A DNA stretch of 64,000 nucleotides from Eledone cirrhosa. Its lineage: Eukaryota. Position 1 is the stretch's first letter; each line of letters starts with the position of its first letter. Below, piece by piece: positions 3,197 through 20,720 of this stretch. The stretch is from the NCBI GenBank assembly GCA_964016885.1, contig OZ024741.1, forward strand, positions 165,292,001-165,356,000, in the 5' to 3' direction. The notes under the pieces are model-generated. The model did no database searches. It had not been told where the DNA came from and saw only the letters and a list, made by a program, of their open reading frames with translations. The translations under genes were made by a program, and so were the position numbers.

Positions 3197-4916
3197 ATAT
3201 GTATATATATATATATTCTTATCCGATATCTGCATTGCTTTATTGTACTACAATAAAACTCACCTCCTACATATATATATACATATATATAGTGGTAAAA
3301 CACAGGGAAGTTACTTACATAGTAAGTAGAGCACTCAATCCATAGAACAAGTTCGGTATAAAGTTAGTTCCAACTTTAAACATATGAATGTATATTATAT
3401 ATATATATATACACACACATACATATGTGTGTGTATAAAAAAATCTAAACTATAATAAAGGAAGGTCTGCGGGATTGCGTACAGTTTATATTTTTTTTTA
3501 TCCCGTTAGTAAAATAAGTTGGATTACTTTGAATAAATAATGAATGAATATTACAGAATTTATCTATTAAATTTCGTAAACAAAAATAATTGTGTAAAAA
3601 TAAATAATTTAAAATTGACTTCTTTTCAAAATTGCACTTCCGGTATATCGTTGCCACCACCACCACTTCAACTACCATATATATAGAAAGAGAGAGTGTG
3701 TGATGTCAACACTTCCGGTGGCGATCACTTAAATAAACATACTAATTTTCTGTCACTAATTTTCTCTTAATACAGTTTATATATAATATCGTTTTTTTTT
3801 TAATGTATCATGGATTACGTTACTGATTACATAAGACAGTGTAACAACGTCTTCGTTCAATTTCTGTTTATATTGTCAATTACGATTTTATTTGATGTAT
3901 CATATCTACATGTATATATACTTGCGTATAATATCAATATACACACTACACATGTTAGCAGAGAACCACCCAAAGGGTGGTTTTTCTGCTAGTAATAATA
4001 AAGATTTGAAGATGCACCTAATGTTTTTTTTTATATATACCTGAAAATTTACAGCACACAATGAAAATAAGTTAATTCATACAATATGAATTATATATAT
4101 ATTTTATATGTAGATTTGCAGAAAAAATCAATTAATTATCTAAAAAAATTATCTAATTTATGTGCTGACTGACTTCAGACAAATCTGGTTTCAAAGTTAT
4201 TTTTTCAAAGTTACATTTGTGCTGGCCTTAAGCATTTTTTAATACATGCCATTATGAGCTGCTTACATACTAATTTTGTATGAACTAATTTCTTGTAATT
4301 GTGTATTCATCATAATGATGATCACCATCATCATTTAATGTCCATTTTCTACACTAATAATTGTTTCTATTTTAGGCACAAGGCCAGCAATTACCCAGTA
4401 CATTACTGATACTTTAGGTCATGTTGACCCTTTGGGAGAGAATCAGGTCAGAGGCCCGCGTTTCGCTTACCCAGGGCTGATTTTGGCTTGGTTTCTACAG
4501 CTGGATGCCCTTCCTAATGCCAACCACATTTACATTGTGACACCTACATAATACATAATCACTTTACAGTGTGGACTGGGTAAATTTATATATATATATA
4601 TATATGTATATATATAAAACACTGGGTGCATTTTCATATCTTTATCATTATTTTTCTTATATTATAATTTGTATAGAATTCTTTAATTTTCTTATGTCTA
4701 ATGTTTTCACTATATACATATATGTTTGTGTGTGTGTGTGTGTATGTTTATGCCTCATAACGTGGCTGTTCAACAAGTAGACATCGATAAACTAAGTACC
4801 AGGCTTAATTAAGTATTATGTCCTTATGATCAATTACATAATTGATTGTAGCTCTACAGCATCGCTGCAGTCTAATGAAGGAAGACAATAAAATGTGTGT
4901 GAGTTTGTAATATGCA

Positions 4917-4965
<49 letters not shown>

Positions 4966-4968
<3 letters not shown>

Positions 4969-6510
4969 TCCTTTCAAAAAAAGAAACATAAAAACGGAAA
5001 ATCAGACTGTTAAAGCAATAATTGAAGAGATGGAGCCTGATGTATCAGAACTGATTGAGGTTATTTATGCAGCAACAATGGTAATATAAAGGAAATGTGA
5101 GTTAAGAAAAAAACAAAAAGGACAGAACACTCACAAAAAACACCCTGGAAAATAAAAATTGAAATGATGTGGGGAGAAATATTGATCTTGGGTGAAATAC
5201 GTGCTGGCAAATCAAGTCAAGAAAAGGAAGGAAAGTGATTACAATGTAACTTCAAAATCTGATATTTCATCAATCAAAGAAACCCTGAAACAGAAATTAC
5301 AGCTGAAAGCTGAAAGAATCAGAAGATTTGAAAAATGAAATAGGTTTATGTCAGATGCAAAAAGCCTTTGCAGGGAAATTGGGACACAGACAATTCAAAT
5401 AAAAGAACTTTCTTCAATTCATAAAATTAAAGAATTTTTGAAAACAGTGTGGAGTACAGAAAAATCACATAATGCAAATGTAGAAAGAATAAAGATGGAA
5501 GAAACATACAATGATTTAGAAAGGCAGACTTGGCAAAACATAACTATAAAAGAACTGGAGTTGGCAGTGAAGAAAGCCAACACATGGAAATCTCCTGGCA
5601 TTGGTAAAGTGATAAACTTCTGGTTATTTCTTTCAACTGCTACCCATATGTTGGTAAAATGTTAAAACGAAATTATGCACAATCCCGAGAAAACTCCTGA
5701 CTGGTTTACACAAGTCATAACATATCTCTTGCCAAAATCAACATAAACAAATATTCCAAAAAATGTTCATCCTATCACTTGTCTTCCCACATCATACAAC
5801 ATTCTCACCTCAATCTTAACCGAGACAACCTACACATTTTTGGATGAAAATCATCTATTCCTTATGGATCAGAAAGGTTGTTGCCATGGATCTTACCGAT
5901 GCAAAGATCAACATCTCATTAACTGTATGATTCTGGAAAACTGTCATAAAAAGTATAGAAATTTGAGTACTGCTTGCATTGACTATAAGAAAACATTTAA
6001 CAGTGCACAGATTTTGAAATTGTTGGATGTTCTGAAAACTTTCCCAGTAATATCAAACTTCCTGAAATACATGACTATATGGAATACACACCTATCATTG
6101 TCACAGTGATGAAACTATATAAATTCCAGCTGAATAAGTATTAACTGTGGTATTTTTCAAGGAGATTCATTTTCTTCTCTGATATTTTGCATTGCTCAAC
6201 AAAGTAAAATATGGCCACAAAATAGACAGCAAAACCATAGATCACCTGTTTTATATGGATGACTTGAAATTGTGTGCCAAACATGAGAGCGAATTGGAAG
6301 GGCTGTTGAAGATAATTAAGGTGTTCAGCGATGAATTAAGGATGAAGTTCGGACTAGAAATTTGCACCAAAGCAACATTAAAAAAAAGCAGAATGGTAAG
6401 CACAAACTCAATAGGAATAGATGTGAATACAATAATTAGGGAACTAGAAGAGGAACAAGCCTAGATATCTAGGGATCAATGAAGGCCAAGGTATTCACCA
6501 TGCCAGTATA
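4966..6510 (+). mobile_element. Degenerate non-LTR retrotransposon RT (R4/Dong-like)
   Basis: Fragmented ORFs with KSPG..NFWL, PITCLPT, QKGC..GS..CKDQ.LIN, IDYKKTF, GIFQGDS, HLFYMDDLKL, MKFGL..C and YLGI motifs. Many stops and frameshifts; starts at a (TA)n tract. Confidence 0.8.
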
Positions 6511-6771
6511 AGAGTTAATGAATTCTCTGATGACAGAAAAAAGAGGGATATTAATGTTTAACACCAATTTCCTTGAATCAGTGCTCAGATTAAAATATGG
6601 AGACATCTATATATTTATAATTGAATTTGAGCAAGGTTTTTCAACACATTTATTTCTCCCTTATATATATTTTTTTCTGGTCCTCTCTGTAGAAACATGT
6701 TAGAAGAATAAGATATTTTAACTTTTTCATTATTGCTAGTTATCCATTATTATATATCTCTAGGGGGATTG

Positions 6772-8728: not shown

Positions 8729-9505
8729 TCATCATCATCATCATCATCATCAGGTTTAGCGTCCGTGTTCCACGCTTGCATGGGTTTGGACGGGGGTTTT
8801 CCCACTTGAGGCAAGAGTGGTTGTCTTGCTCGCATAGGACTGTCTGGCGGGTTTTCTACAGTTGGATGCCCTTCCTAACACCAACCACATTTACAGTGTG
8901 GGGCTGGGAGGTTTTTACCGTGTTGCCTACACGGCCACATTACAGCGTGGACTGTCTGGCGGGTTTTCTACAGCTGGATGCCCTTCCTAACACCAACCAC
9001 ATTTACAGTGTGGGGCTGGGAGGTTTTTACCGTGTTGCCTACACGGCCACATTTACAGCGTGGACTGTGTGTTTTTTTGTCGTGACACCTACACGATCTC
9101 ATTTGTTTCGGCCTGGATGTTGTGGGACCAACATAACTTTACATTGAAGGGGGCGGTGTGGATGGGGTGGAGGTGGTGGGACGGGGGGGTGTTTTGATAG
9201 AGATGCCTACTGACTGTAGTAGGTTTTTACTTTGTATTTAGGTAAGGCGGGTCTTCTCTATTACTGAGTACCGCCAAAGGTCTCGGTCCAGTGACATTGT
9301 CTTGGAGAGGTGTAAGCGTGTGAGGTCGGAATTTATCAGCTCGTCCCATGTTTTTCTGGGTCTGCCTACTCCGTGGCTACCGTCTATCTTTATTGCCCTG
9401 CACTTTGCTATACAGCTGTCGTCTTTCATGCGCATCACGTGACCGTACCAACGTAGCCTTCACTCGAGTAAACAACATCTGATCCCTCTTATTTCTAATT
9501 TTTTT
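8729..9505 (-). mobile_element. RTE-clade LINE, 5'-truncated 3' end
   Basis: Encodes ...RWYGHVMRMKDDSCIAKCRAIKIDGSHGVGRPRKTWDELI, nearly identical to 44740-44961. 3' UTR has a ~110-bp internal duplication and a (gat)n tail. Confidence 0.9.
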
Positions 9506-9729
9506 GTATGCATGTGAATGTGATCCCTCTTATTTCTAATTTTTTATGTATGCATGTGAATGTGTATATATCTACACTGGTCAACTGATGAGCTCGGACT
9601 GTGTTTTGTTACTTTTTCTGTTTTTGCCCATAATTTTTATTCATTATATGAACCTGTTACTTTTATCTAAAGACATTTTTTCAAATTCCACCCTGCCTGT
9701 CTCTTCAATCTATCTTTCTTCTCATTCTT

Positions 9730-9765
9730 TCTTCTGATGAAGGACTAGCATCCGAAACATTAAGA
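9730..9765 (+). ncRNA. Minimal hammerhead motif (decayed copy)
   Basis: tctt CTGATGA agga ctagca tcc GAAAC att aaga, with stem I tctt/aaga. Same family as 31617-31652, where stem III reads AACGTT. The shared downstream tail ends at (TA)n. Confidence 0.5.
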
Positions 9766-10383
9766 CCCTCTTCCTGCTATTTCAAGCGTTAACTTAATAT
9801 ATTCCTTCCATATATACTGTACCGATTGTGTTATTTCTGTTTACCTTTTACATTATATATATACATACAGAAAAAAGGTAACGATGGAAGCACAATGGAA
9901 ATATATTTAAAGAATATTTTTTCTTTTTTAATCCGACAAAGTGATTATTGAAAAAAGAAGAAAAACATTCTTTTAAAAAGGAGGTTTTATAAAATACATA
10001 AAAAATATTATCGGTTTTGATGTTATTCATCTTAAATATTAAAAGTTAAGAATTAAAAATTAAAAATTGAAGAAGGTCTATTCAAACTATTTGAAGAAAA
10101 TTAACCAACTTTCATTAGGAACTGTTTCTTAAACATTTTAAAATTAAAGTTGGTTAATTTTCTTGAAATACTTTTGAATGTATATGCTCTGCTTATTTGC
10201 TAAATGCCTCACTAACTTTTTCCATGCTTTAACCAAACTCTTCTCTTAATGCTTGTTTTGCACGATATAAACATTGAGCAAATGCCTCAGTCCATGGCTG
10301 ACAATTACAACCTTAGAGCTTTGATTGTATACTTCCGCTTTTGATTGATGTGTCCCAATGACTTTTTTTAGCCGTTGCTCGCA

Positions 10384-10449
10384 CCAACCTGAGGTATATG
10401 GCCTTTAAAGTGACGAAATGCCTACGACGGTTGGAAGGCCACTGATGAG
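10384..10449 (+). ncRNA. Putative rearranged (non-circularly permuted) hammerhead ribozyme, copy 1
   Basis: aggta-T-A-tggcctt (10392-10405) ... C-GAAA-tgcct (10414-10423) ... aaggcca-CTGATGA-G (10435-10449). Extra helix ccaacc/ggttgg. Confidence 0.65.
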
Positions 10450-11008
10450 GACAAACTTTTTCATATGTAACCCATTTGCAGCGCCACAGCTCCATTATTA
10501 TCATATTTACACATATTTTTTCCTCCGCTGCCACCAGTCTGTTTCGTTCTTTGTGTCTTTACCCTTTCTAGCAGTCTCTCTCTCTCTGTTAGCCTCTTCC
10601 TCACCTTTCACTCACTCACTCTCTGTCACTACCTCTCCTCCTCCCCTTTCTTCCCGTTTGACCTGTCCGTAATCCTTTTCTCGCGGGCACTTGGCCAAGC
10701 CGGTATGAATTTTTTCTCTCTCTCTCTCTCGTCTGCGACTTCACAGAACTTATGTTTACCGAATTCGCAGACCAGACCCCTTCTTCCTCCCATTAGACCT
10801 GTGCGAAATTCCTTCCTTGCTCACATTTCAACCAGGTTTGATGGTCTTTATTCTCTCGTTCACGATTCCACCGAATTTATATTCATAGAAATCTGGGACT
10901 TGTTCCTTTCTTCTTCATCACTTTCTGTTGCTTAAACCATTTTGTTTGTTTACCCTAGCGTCCCCCTTATTTACGTGTCCCAACGACTTTTTTTAGCCGT
11001 TGCTCGCA

Positions 11009-11074
11009 CCAACCTGAGGTATATGGCCTTTAAAGCGACGAAATGCCTACGGCGGTTGGATGGCCACTGATGAG
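11009..11074 (+). ncRNA. Putative rearranged hammerhead ribozyme, copy 2
   Basis: Near-identical direct repeat of copy 1, 625 nt downstream; followed by (TA)n. Confidence 0.65.
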
Positions 11075-11189
11075 GACAAACTTTTTCATATATATATATA
11101 TATCAAACATTAAACTAATATATTTCTTCATTGTACAGCATAGTTTCTCTATGTTGCTTATGTTTACTTTTTCACATATATATATATAT

Positions 11190-11530
11190 CATCATCATCA
11201 TCATCATTATCGTTTAACGTCCATCTTCCACACTAGCATGGGTTGGATGGGTTTGTCCCACTTGAGGCAATATTGATCAGGTGACCATGTCTCACTCATA
11301 TAGAACTGTTTCTGGAAGGTTTTCTATGGCTGGATGTCCTTCCTAACGCCAACCACATTTGCAGTGTGGACTAGGAGCCTGTTTACCGTGTCTCCTACAC
11401 AACCATTTTACAGTGTGGACTGGGTGCTTTTTATCGTGTCACCTACATGACCAATTTATAGTGTGGATTGGATGTTCTGTGGTACCAACATACCTTTACA
11501 GAGGAAGGGCGGTGTGGACGTAAGTGGGAG
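11190..11530 (-). mobile_element. RTE 3'-UTR-derived element
   Basis: (cat)n followed by cgtttaacgtccatcttccacactagcatggg and ctggatgtccttcctaacgccaacc, homologous to the RTE tail. Confidence 0.7.
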
Positions 11531-11750
11531 GATGGTGTGTGTGTGTATATATATATATATACACACAGACACAGACACACATACAAATCACATATATATA
11601 TACCAGCTAGCCAGTATCTGGAAGATATGGGGTTCAATTTGTCATAGTGGCCAGTGGCAACTTCTTTATCTGTCTTTTAAGGGTCTTCACCCTATTTTAT
11701 AAGCTATCTTTATAGTATTTCTGCACTTGAGCACTTTCTTTATACTTATA

Positions 11751-12151
11751 TCATCATCATCATCATCATCACCATTTTACGTCCGTTCTTCCATGCTAGC
11801 ATGGGTTAGACGGGTTTACCTGTTGTGGGCAGTGTCTGGTCAGCTGACCTTGTCTTGCTCATACGAGAACTGATTCTGGCTTGATTTCTACAGCTGGATG
11901 CCCTTCCTAACACAAACCTCATTTACAGTGAGTGCTGGGTGCTTTTTTGCCGTGGCGCCTCCACGACCACTTTTCAATGGAATGATAGGGACCCCAGTCC
12001 CTATCATCTCATTTCTACAGCTGAGTAAACTGGAGCAATGTGAAATAAAGTGTCTTGCTCAAGGAAACAACACATCACCCGGTCTGAGAATTGAACTCAC
12101 AACCTTTCGATTGCAAGCCCAATGCTCTAACCACTAAGCCATGCACCTTCA
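11751..12151 (-). mobile_element. SINE family A
   Basis: Reverse-complement match to 817-1148 and 30842-31280. Confidence 0.85.
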
Positions 12152-12158
12152 TATATGC

Positions 12159-12195
<37 letters not shown>

Positions 12196-12312
12196 TGCAT
12201 ATATGCTTGCTGTTTTCCTACCTTCGGTTTGCTTTTCCTTCTGTTGTTTACTTGTCTCACTCGCTTTACGCGTTTCACTTGTCCCAATAGCTTATTTTAG
12301 TTATTGCTCGCA

Positions 12313-12378
12313 CCAACCTGAGGTATCTGATTTTTAATGCGATGAAATACCAATGATGGTTGGCAAATCACTGATGAG
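12313..12378 (+). ncRNA. Putative rearranged hammerhead ribozyme, copy 3 (diverged)
   Basis: ggta-T-C-tgattt ... T-GAAA-tacc ... aaatca-CTGATGA-G. Stem I is compensatorily changed relative to copies 1 and 2. Lies in a ~255-bp segment between (TA)n tracts. Confidence 0.65.
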
Positions 12379-12961
12379 GGACTAATTTTATAATATGTAA
12401 CCCATGTGCAACCACGCAGTATTCCTCTTTCTTCCCATGTTTTTCATATATATATATATATATATATATACATACACACACACTCATATTTTGAAAAGTG
12501 AAAACAGGAAGGTGGTGGTGATAGTTGTTGAATGGAATAATGTTATATGATAAGTGGAGTGGGGTGAAGGAAAGGGTGAGTGTAGGGGTAGGGGAGATTT
12601 ACAGTGATGATGAGAATAGTGAATAATGAGTGATGGTAGATTAGGGGACCCAAGTATGGCCAGGCCAAATGTCACATTCTACATCATCATCACCATTGTC
12701 ATCACAAACAGCATCATCATCACCATCCTCACCTTCATCAGTTTCCTCATTGTCTCCATCATCACACCATCACCGCCATCATCATTGTTTTTCATCCTCA
12801 TTATCATTATTATCTCCATCATCATCATCACTGTACTTATCACTATCAACTTCATCATTCTCCTCATTCAACTCCTCCCCCTTCTCACCATCATCATCAT
12901 CTCCTTCCTCATCACCATCAACACCATCGTCATAATTAACAACAACAACAACAACAACAGC

Positions 12962-17838: not shown

Positions 17839-18057
17839 TAGGCATGTCAAACTGAAGGTCCCAGGAGGGCCACATGGGTCACATATGTGTTGTCTGAGGG
17901 TCACACAGGACAACTAATTGCGCACATTACAACACATTTTTTAAATTTTATATTACGAATATAAAACATGCTCACGCTGTAAAAACCTTTGTGCGGGCCG
18001 GAGGTGTGCTTGTAAAGGGCCGCATGTGGCCCACGGGCTGCATGTTTCTCATGCATG
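17839..18057. mobile_element. Non-autonomous hAT-type MITE
   Basis: Imperfect TIRs taggcatgtcaaac / gtttctcatgcatg, subterminal gggcc motifs, 8-bp TSD ctctatgt (17831-17838) / ctctatat (18058-18065). Confidence 0.7.
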
Positions 18058-20720
18058 CTCTATATATCAGATGATCCATCCGTGCTCTATATATCAGATG
18101 ATCCATCCGTGCTCTATATATCAGATGATCCATCCGTGCTCTATATATCAGATGATCCATCCATGCTCTATATACCAGATGATCCATCCATGCTCTATAT
18201 ACCAGATGATCCATCCATGCTCTATATATCAGATGATCCATCCGTGCTCTATATACCAGATGATCCATCTGTGCTCTATATACCAGATGATCCATCTGTG
18301 CTCTATATACCAGATGATCCATCCATGCTCTATATATCAGATGATCCATCCGTGCTCTATATACCAGATGATCCATCCGTGCTCTATATACCAGATGATC
18401 CATCTGTGCTCTATATACCAGATGATCCATCTGTGCTCTATATACCAGATGATCCATCCATGCTCTATATATCAGATGATCCATCCGTGCTCTATATATT
18501 AGATGATCCATCCGTGCTCTATATATCAGATGATCCATCCATGCTCTATATATCAGATGATCCATCCATGCTCTATATACCAGATGATCCATCCATGCTC
18601 TATATATCAGATGATCCATCCGTGCTCTATATATCAGATGATCCATCCGTGCTCTATATATCAGATGATCAATCCGTGCTCTATATATCAGATGATCCAT
18701 CCATGCTCTATATACCAGATGATCCATCTGTGCTCTATATACCAGATGATCCATCTGTGCTCTATATACCAGATGATCCATCCATGCTCTATATATCAGA
18801 TGATCCATCTGTGCTCTATATATCAGATGATCCATCCATGCTCTATATATCAGATGATCCATCCGTGCTCTATATATCAGATGATCCATCCATGCTCTAT
18901 ATACCAGATGATCCATCCATGCTCTATATATCAGATGATCCATCCATGCTCTATATATCAGATGATCCATCCATGCTCTATATATCAGATGATCAATCCG
19001 TGCTCTATATACCAGATGATCCATCCGTGCTCTATATATCAGATGATCCATCCGTGCTCTATATACCAGATGATCCATCTGTGCTCTATATATCAGATGA
19101 TCCATCCGTGCTCTATATATCAGATGATCCATCCGTGCTCTATATATCAGATGATCCATCTGTGCTCTATATATCAGATGATCCATCTGTGCTCTATATA
19201 TCAGATGATCCATCTGTGCTCTATATATCAGATGATCCATCCGTGCTCTATATACCAGATGATCCATCCGTGCTCTATATATCAGATGATCCATCCGTGC
19301 TCTATATACCAGATGATCCATCTGTGCTCTATATATCAGATGATCCATCCGTGCTCTATATACCAGATGATCCATCCGTGCTCTATATACCAGATGATCC
19401 ATCCATGCTCTATATACCAGATGATCCATCCATGCTCTATATATCAGATGATCCATCCGTGCTCTATATATCAGATGATCCATCCATGCTCTATATATCA
19501 GATGATCCATCCATGCTCTATATATCAGATGATCCATCCGTGCTCTATATACCAGATGATCCATCCATGCTCTATATACCAGATGATCCATCCGTGCTCT
19601 ATATACCAGATGATCCATCCATGCTCTATATACCAGATGATCCATCTGTGCTCTATATATCAGATGATCCATCCGTGCTCTATATACCAGATGATCCATC
19701 CGTGCTCTATATACCAGATGATCCATCCATGCTCTATATACCAGATGATCCATCCATGCTCTATATATCAGATGATCCATCCATGCTCTATATACCAGAT
19801 GATCCATCTGTGCTCTATATATCAGATGATCCATCCGTGCTCTATATATCAGATGATCCATCTGTGCTCTATATATCAGATGATCCATCCATGCTCTATA
19901 TATCAGATGATCCATCCGTGCTCTATATATCAGATGATCCATCCATGCTCTATATATCAGATGATCCATCCGTGCTCTATATATCAGATGATCCATCCAT
20001 GCTCTATATATCAGATGATCCATCCGTGCTCTATATACCAGATGATCCATCTGTGCTCTATATACCAGATGATCCATCTGTGCTCTATATATCAGATGAT
20101 CCATCCGTGCTCTATATATCAGATGATCCATCCATGCTCTATATATCAGATGATCCATCCATGCTCTATATATCAGATGATCCATCCGTGCTCTATATAC
20201 CAGATGATCCATCTGTGCTCTATATACCAGATGATCCATCTGTGCTCTATATATCAGATGATCCATCCGTGCTCTATATATCAGATGATCCATCCATGCT
20301 CTATATATCAGATGATCCATCCGTGCTCTATATACCAGATGATCCATCTGTGCTCTATATACCAGATGATCCATCTGTGCTCTATATATCAGATGATCCA
20401 TCCGTGCTCTATATATCAGATGATCCATCCATGCTCTATATACCAGATGATCCATCTGTGCTCTATATATCAGATGATCCATCCGTGCTCTATATATCAG
20501 ATGATCCATCCATGCTCTATATATCAGATGATCCATCCATGCTCTATATATCAGATGATCCATCCATGCTCTATATATCAGATGATCCATCCGTGCTCTA
20601 TATATCAGATGATCCATCCGTGCTCTATATATCAGATGATCCATCTGTGCTCTATATATCAGATGATCCATCCATGCTCTATATACCAGATGATCCATCC
20701 GTGCTCTATATATCAGATGA
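18055..20720. repeat. 27-bp minisatellite, ~99 copies
   Basis: Unit TGCTCTATATA[T/C]CAGATGATCCATC[CG/CA/TG], head-to-tail with no spacers. Confidence 0.98.

Follow-up and report, generated by a model that had tools for sequence, protein, structure and literature searches.

Permuted hammerhead motifs in the window

The window, a stretch of 64,000 nucleotides of Eledone cirrhosa DNA (contig OZ024741.1, positions 165,292,001 to 165,356,000), harbors three hammerhead-like motifs on its forward strand. In each of them the conserved blocks follow one another in the order S-G-C, the cleavage site (S) preceding GAAA (G) and CUGAUGA (C). In copy 1, U16.1 and H17 correspond to T10397 and A10398, GAAA occupies 10415-18 and CTGATGA 10442-48; H17 is A11023 in copy 2 and C12327 in copy 3. 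Stem I, stem III, the helix CCAACC/GGTTGG and the G10449-C10414 pair were likewise all located in the sequence. The core elements lie where the preliminary description had placed them in all three motifs, and the non-circular strand order that it proposed is borne out in 3/3, corresponding to what Eckert et al. (2023, PMC10085705) call type SGC. Its motif start at 10384 has to be moved further upstream, to about 10351 (Table 1). The three copies that it counted are real motifs but represent only two independent sequences, copies 1 and 2 being the two ends of a single insertion. The three motifs are not a chance occurrence. Copy 3 is the cleanest and is typical for its family; the upstream stem II of copy 1 contains one G-U wobble and one A.A mismatch, and in copy 2 a kink-turn A is replaced by G.

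Table 1. Insertions, ribozyme copies and, from P0 to block C, the elements of copy 1 in 5′ to 3′ order.
Feature	Positions	Strand	Remarks
Family A non-coding Penelope-like insertion	10350..11091	+	1.19 units of a 625-nt unit, 5′-truncated
Ribozyme copy 1, closing helix to closing helix	10351..10453	+	predicted cut after A10398
Closing helix P0, 5′ strand (TGTCC)	10351..10355	+	pairs with 10449/10450-10453; outer pair GC:19, AU:8
Hairpin Ph, between P0 and stem II	10356..10377	+	two-sided changes in 6/7 pairs
Stem II distal 5′ strand (TCGCA), supplied from upstream	10379..10383	+	pairs with 10409-10413
Bridging helix Pb, 5′ strand (CCAACC)	10384..10389	+	pairs with 10429-10434; connects stems I and II
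Kink-turn-like non-bulged strand (UGA)	10390..10392	+	opposite 10423-10428; G 96/100, A 41/43
Block S: stem III 3′ strand, U16.1, H17, stem I 3′ strand	10393..10404	+	predicted cut after A10398
Block G: stem II 3′ strand, C11.1, GAAA, stem III 5′ strand	10409..10422	+	
Kink-turn-like bulge (3 nt + GA + N) and Pb 3′ strand	10423..10434	+	G 98/100, A 100/100
Block C: stem I 5′ strand, CUGAUGA, nucleotide 10.1 (pairs with 11.1), P0 3′ strand	10436..10453	+	
Ribozyme copy 2, 3′ end of family A insertion	10976..11078	+	predicted cut after A11023
Family B 5′-truncated insertion (533-nt unit)	12205..12449	+	flanked by (AT)n tracts; contains copy 3
Ribozyme copy 3	12280..12382	+	predicted cut after C12327

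Architecture of the fold

Read 5′ to 3′, the fold begins with a P0 strand, the hairpin Ph, the distal strand of stem II, a Pb strand and UGA; it continues through stem III, UH, stem I, a linker, the stem II 3′ strand, GAAA and stem III, and ends with a 3-nt bulge followed by GA, then Pb, stem I, CUGAUGA, nucleotide 10.1 and P0. Seven elements of this arrangement are paired, namely stems I, II and III, Pb, P0, Ph and the 10.1-11.1 pair, and compensatory changes occur in most of them. Stems I, II and III flank the core, the 5′ side of stem II being built from two strands. As first described, the fold was rightly taken for a non-circular hammerhead, while its closing helix, hairpin, kink-turn and retroelement context were overlooked.

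Pairing was counted in a sample selected without reference to the core: the first 100 among 15,132 listed matches to a pattern that leaves GAAA and CUGANGA free, of which the 93 with standard spacing were used. The single stem II pair next to the core, noted earlier, is real, since positions 10.1 and 11.1 form a standard pair of four types in 89/93 copies (AU 48, GU 23, UA 9, GC 9). Stem II does not end there, as had been thought, but continues by strand exchange with the TCGCA strand at 10379-83; pairs 1-4 of this upstream part are kept in 88, 87, 88 and 90 of 93 copies and pair 5 in 45/93, and a C-G pair is changed to U-A in 11 copies. The contiguous extension aaagt/acttt suggested earlier reads less well, contiguous pairs beyond 10.1-11.1 forming in 0, 0 and 5 of 93 copies. 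Because the upstream strand completes stem II, the dimer that had seemed necessary is not required on paper. The covariation of the 10.1-11.1 pair, together with reports that minimal hammerheads of Penelope-like elements (PLEs) cleave as dimers, would also accord with a stem II of 1 bp (or one extended by aaagt/acttt) whose activity depends on a dimer or on another fold; the contrast between the upstream and the contiguous pairings, and a stem II derived wholly from upstream in 6/6 metagenome Naiad loci (see below), make this very improbable.

The covarying helix Pb joins the strands of stems I and II and would provide their contact in three dimensions. The extra helix had been thought to abut stem I without a linker; a variable, mostly unpaired base, 10435, intervenes between Pb and the 6-bp stem I. 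In a kink-turn, two helices flank a 3-nt bulge and the tandem G.A and A.G pairs that come after it. This pattern is present here, as a sequence pattern alone (purine counts in Table 1), and its four purines are as invariant as the core, whereas the bulge positions vary in 52, 7 and 26 of 100 copies. What had been proposed as a fifth stem III pair is better interpreted as part of the kink-turn. None of the six metagenome Naiad loci contains the kink-turn pattern.

Conservation and covariation

Among the 100 core-free copies, the ten core positions carry 12 changes per 1,000 letters, scattered over single copies, compared with changes in up to 52/100 copies at helix and bulge positions; the check set beforehand, that the core should be more conserved than its surroundings, thus came out positive. 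The free position N7 is changed in 10/100 copies (T>C). The site block was assessed in loci found without it, of which 43/60 were kept and 17, failing an upstream hairpin/linker filter, were dropped. Of these 43 loci, 42 retain U16.1; at H17, A occurs in 27, C in 16 and G in 0. The hammerhead core CUGANGA + GAAA + UH is complete, with N7 free and H17 not G.

Covariation was evaluated in 32 hand-chosen rows, drawn from the copies of the window (three), from representatives of clusters and from additional members of subfamilies; three 5′-truncated rows were retained. Paired cells amount to 90.2%, vs 81.9 ± 0.5 in shuffles, and slid-register controls pair in 27-45% of cells. Pairs changed on both sides number 23/35, vs 14.6 ± 1.8 after shuffling; this value is reached in 0/500 shuffles, a count that is not a probability, the rows being related by descent. 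Covariation is strong in stem I (6/7 pairs), Pb (5/6) and Ph (6/7), and weak in this lineage in stem III (2/4), upstream stem II (1/5) and P0 (1/4). The two-sided changes that had been sought in stem I and the extra helix are therefore seen, and those sought in stem III only weakly so. In the core-free sample, Pb is paired in 81-93 of 93 copies.

Nested folding recovered part of the model with stability that is not unusual (z -1.18, 0.08, -1.71), and copy 1 favoured another fold; minimum free energy folding of this nested kind was set aside as a test, being uninformative for a triple pseudoknot. No Rfam ribozyme family reached the gathering score in the window or in 20 Naiad loci, and none matched positions 9500-12600 at E 10.

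Repeat families carrying the predicted ribozyme

In the genome, pattern matches to the motif number about 17,000, vs 52 in controls. Tight patterns of this lineage gave 14,895 and 1,950 genome matches, vs 23 and 0 for reversed-pattern controls, and the core-free pattern gave 15,132, vs 0. Two sequencing runs of unknown kind attest to presence and high depth, nothing more. Older repeat families (L136-L149, L155-L164) have the same block order with unrelated helix sequences and no kink-turn; the pattern search for older families gave 308 genome matches, vs 29 for the reversed control. The automatic parser handled 8/16 of the older loci, several of them with misplaced peripheral helices, and the support for these families is by eye only.

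The family A insertion of the window bears a ribozyme at each end (a pseudo-LTR), copies 1 and 2, and terminates in (AT)n, 68 nt past the predicted cut. The family B insertion ends 122 nt past the predicted cut. For family A there are 1,254 candidates, the best 39 non-self matches being 96-98% identical, and for family B 1,503, the best 39 non-self matches being 99% identical; both families are young. Insertion anatomy was read from ribozyme-holding loci viewed 1.5 kb to either side, family A being represented by 45 segments uncut by a locus edge. Insertions have fixed 3′ ends running into (TA)n and scattered 5′ ends, and inverted truncated copies are common. The 3′ ends cluster at +68 (10 segments) and at +103 to +118 (27) after the predicted cut in family A, and at +122 in family B (36/44, related subfamilies included). 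More than one unit is present in 18/45 family A segments, with a maximum of 2.21. No pile-up of 5′ ends at the predicted cut was found among the insertions examined; family B 5′ ends apparently lying at +1 were rejected as an edge artefact of the reference.

Since the units occur in partial tandems, an ordinary type I, II or III hammerhead might be assembled from blocks of successive units, or the blocks might be juxtaposed by chance. This is extremely improbable: the partners all fall, in S-G-C order, inside a stretch of about 100 nt and show local covariation, many insertions hold a single ribozyme, and no Rfam hammerhead model has a match in window positions 9500-12600, even at E 10.

The 533-625 nt units of the window hold no frame for an N-terminal GIY-YIG, CxC, DKA or RT, and are non-autonomous at most. 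Being non-coding and ribozyme-bounded, they resemble non-LTR retrozymes. (TA)n targets, partial tandems, inverted 5′-truncated copies and a tail have been described for Penelope-like elements, Naiads included (PMC8557442); the window families show the same features, which among PLEs are not specific to Naiads. The repeats are likely derived from Naiad Penelope-like retroelements.

Relationship to Naiad elements

Naiads are said to lack canonical hammerheads, although some, Naiad_Ovul among them, are marked "HHR_core" or "HHR_half_core" (Craig et al., 2021, PMC8557442). Some of the 54 published consensi were read by eye at their ends (File S5, PMC8557442). Naiad_Obim, Ovul, Amil, Aacu, Anas and Bfor, together with two unlabelled ends, were parsed as S-G-C with upstream stem II, and the Esco end as S-G-C with an imperfect stem II; the same wiring is thereby found in Octopus and coral consensi, whether marked "HHR_half_core" or unmarked. 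Four nematode ends were parsed by eye as C-S-G; their stem II is contiguous, and they have the bridging helix as well. By eye, the 3′ ends of Naiad_Obim and Ovul agree with copy 3 in their fold, in the kink-turn letters and in 11 nt of the hairpin loop, a likeness that accords with a mollusc as host. The window elements differ from Naiads in being non-coding.

From metagenomes, 80 Naiad-RT loci were retrieved, 55 of which contain the RT end and at least 150 nt of 3′ flank. A strict, order-free descriptor matched 6/55 of these flanks, all as SGC, whereas reverse strands, ORF sequence and 20 shuffles had no match. In 6/6 loci a 6-bp stem II is supplied wholly from upstream, with no contiguous stem II (0 bp); P0 follows A9 directly, and Ph and Pb lie in the same places with unrelated sequences. 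The chain is thus broken after A9 in the six Naiad loci vs after 10.1 in the window lineage. In five of the six loci the open frame measures 861-946 aa and, to judge from motifs identified by eye, bears an N-terminal GIY-YIG region. As 49/55 flanks, many of them long, lack a strict match, the ribozyme marks only part of the Naiad clade. Flanks of this kind include one truncated copy of the fold with no CUGANGA block (L246), one decayed copy with a broken stem I (L282) and several with a different motif. In L219, L232, L233 and L240, this other motif is conserved and structured-looking, lies 3′ of the Naiad RT without CUGANGA and has no Rfam match. The differing 3′ motifs suggest that Naiad lineages swap ribozyme classes.

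Three protein searches of the Eledone cirrhosa genome, in which 150/165, 51/23,441 and 131/4,140 candidates were scored, revealed broken Naiad frames alone and no intact Naiad. No ribozyme was found 3′ of the broken frames on the same strand, and a profile search behind them yielded window-type copies on the opposite strand only. Likewise, no Naiad RT was found within 1.5 kb of ribozyme loci, the sole exception being a fragment of a GIY-YIG region at the L021 edge. When the published ribozyme of the Octopus Naiad was used as an exact pattern, it had 1 match in the genome, which does not fit the fold. These broken frames, the long inactivity of cephalopod Naiads (Craig et al., 2021, PMC8557442) and the presence of other PLE-like frame fragments within the same (TA)n tracts would fit a history in which the ribozyme is real and Naiad-derived but the young families, their host Naiads being dead, are moved by a canonical PLE with a C-terminal endonuclease. 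We regard this as unlikely, though worth serious attention: the searches for intact Naiads evaluated a fraction of their candidates, the PLE-like frames nearby belong to other insertions and show no link to the ribozyme, and no 3′ end common to a canonical PLE was demonstrated. It would alter only the identity of the partner in the mechanism below. A PLE-like frame beside the motif (L075/L091) was rejected as a partner, being a separate insertion past the (TA)n tract with no Pfam match. In L091 it spans 3406-6632 as a broken Penelope-like frame that has a GIY-YIG-like region at its C terminus, is accompanied by an inverted terminal copy and stands apart from the ribozyme family.

Comparison with known permuted hammerheads and retrozymes

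SGC is one of three non-circular hammerhead orders (Eckert et al., 2023, PMC10085705). Ribozymes of this order have been validated in vitro, with rates of 0.007-0.19 per min; according to the accessible text of that paper, they come from metatranscriptomes only and from no genomes of known organisms, one doubtful GCS case apart (PMC10085705). The precedent in Xenopus named in the preliminary description finds no echo there, "xenopus" having 0 occurrences in the accessible text of the permutation paper (PMC10085705). HRIMA-1 and the SGC variants (PMC10085705) share with the present form the block order, an identical core, a helix bridging stems I and II and a short linker that joins the stem I 3′ strand to the stem II 3′ strand. 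In type SGC, however, block C is assumed to be unbroken, with stem II directly after CUGAnGA, whereas here it is broken after the first pair, or after A9 in the six Naiad loci. Unlike in type SGC, the chain ends exit through a closing helix and hairpin, a kink-turn-like joint is added and the host is a genomic retroelement. Type CSG, known from two metagenome sequences (PMC10085705) and recognized by eye in the nematode Naiad ends, has the same circular wiring, I5′-core-II5′-Pb-III3′-UH-I3′-II3′-GAAA-III5′-Pb′; it is opened between stem III and Pb, leaving stem II contiguous, whereas the present form is opened inside block C. To judge from its sequence, the fold is best described as the circular wiring of SGC and CSG with a new opening point. 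In the literature searched, subscription papers lying largely outside it, no account was found of the split fold or of any Naiad or cephalopod hammerhead in permuted order, and the split, knotted SGC form is apparently undescribed before.

The non-LTR retrozymes of animals (PMC7229834; Li et al., 2026, 10.64898/2026.07.22.740005) are also non-coding, ribozyme-bounded units that occur in tandem or singly, and are thought to be mobilised by PLEs via circular RNA. They carry type I hammerheads, the sole target of the 2026 search, whereas the 533-625 nt units described here carry a pseudoknotted S-G-C ribozyme.

Proposed mechanism

The motif is probably an active hammerhead, SGC-wired and with its stem II completed from upstream, that lies in the terminal repeat of short non-coding repeats likely derived from Naiads and would cut read-through transcripts to unit length. 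The production of unit-length RNAs by a cut after H17 seems very probable; cleavage would be Mg-dependent and follow the usual hammerhead chemistry. Pb would take the place of the loop contact that usually connects stems I and II, the kink-turn would bend stem III back towards Pb, and P0 and Ph would stack, so that the end of CUGAUGA adjoins the start of the upstream strand. After cleavage, both strands of stem I would reside in the 3′ product, which about 19-21 pairs (P0, II, Pb and III) would tie to the 5′ product. Because four helices would hold the cleavage products together, the monomer could close into a circle: its two ends would rebuild the ribozyme, favouring ligation either unaided or via RtcB, the route demonstrated for retrozymes of type I (PMC7229834). 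An RT of the Penelope type, supplied in trans, would then prime at (TA)n some 68-122 nt beyond the cut and copy through the cut site, a step to which we give roughly an even chance. Copying through the junction would yield fixed 3′ ends, partial tandems and random 5′ ends. An uncut multimer as template fits the insertion anatomy equally well as a circular one.

A fold of hammerhead descent might instead serve now mainly as a signal bound by an RT or another protein, for example via the kink-turn, and cleave little or only with protein; cDNA crosses the predicted cut as many as three times, 5′ ends do not accumulate at this point, the stem II base is mismatched in some subfamilies, and known SGC forms are slow (PMC10085705). 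Yet conservation tracks catalysis exactly, with N7 free, H17 never G and U16.1 fixed, and the core is unchanged across unrelated Naiad sequences, which renders such a shift of function improbable.

The reading as an active ribozyme may be extended, more tentatively and at somewhat less than an even chance, to a hammerhead class outside the six-permutation scheme, which would be opened in the catalytic junction, be held in a four-helix cage, and cut and then re-close its own RNA. Much of the Naiad clade might have it as its hidden ribozyme, and in this genome it might drive about 17,000 copies of a circular-RNA retroelement that outlive their Naiad parent.

If this holds, the published statement that Naiads are without hammerheads would be overturned and the "half core" marks explained. 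Non-circularly permuted hammerheads, so far almost only environmental, would enter animal genomes by the thousands. The assumption that CUGAnGA and stem II are inseparable would also be broken, and descriptor searches would consequently have missed a ribozyme class. One circular wiring with three opening points (SGC, CSG and the present form) offers a possible path for the evolution of permutations. An RNA of 105 nt is enough to put the role of ribozymes in Penelope-like elements to the test, and RNA circles could be produced with the help of a ribozyme that retains both products.

Neighbouring features

Other elements lie near the insertions. A minimal hammerhead motif of ordinary order (type I-like) is present at 9730-9765 (+), and a near-identical one lies directly behind the family B copy in L115; the former is likely the end of a canonical Penelope-like repeat that uses the same (TA)n target. 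Directly upstream of the family A insertion there is an AT-rich inverted repeat of about 100 nt (10076-10184). A tRNA-like segment inside a repeat at 12084-12141 (-) (Rfam 31.2 bits) is likely a tRNA-derived SINE head. Further along the window, positions 18056-20720 are occupied by a homogeneous 27-nt minisatellite of about 99 copies with 95% matches.
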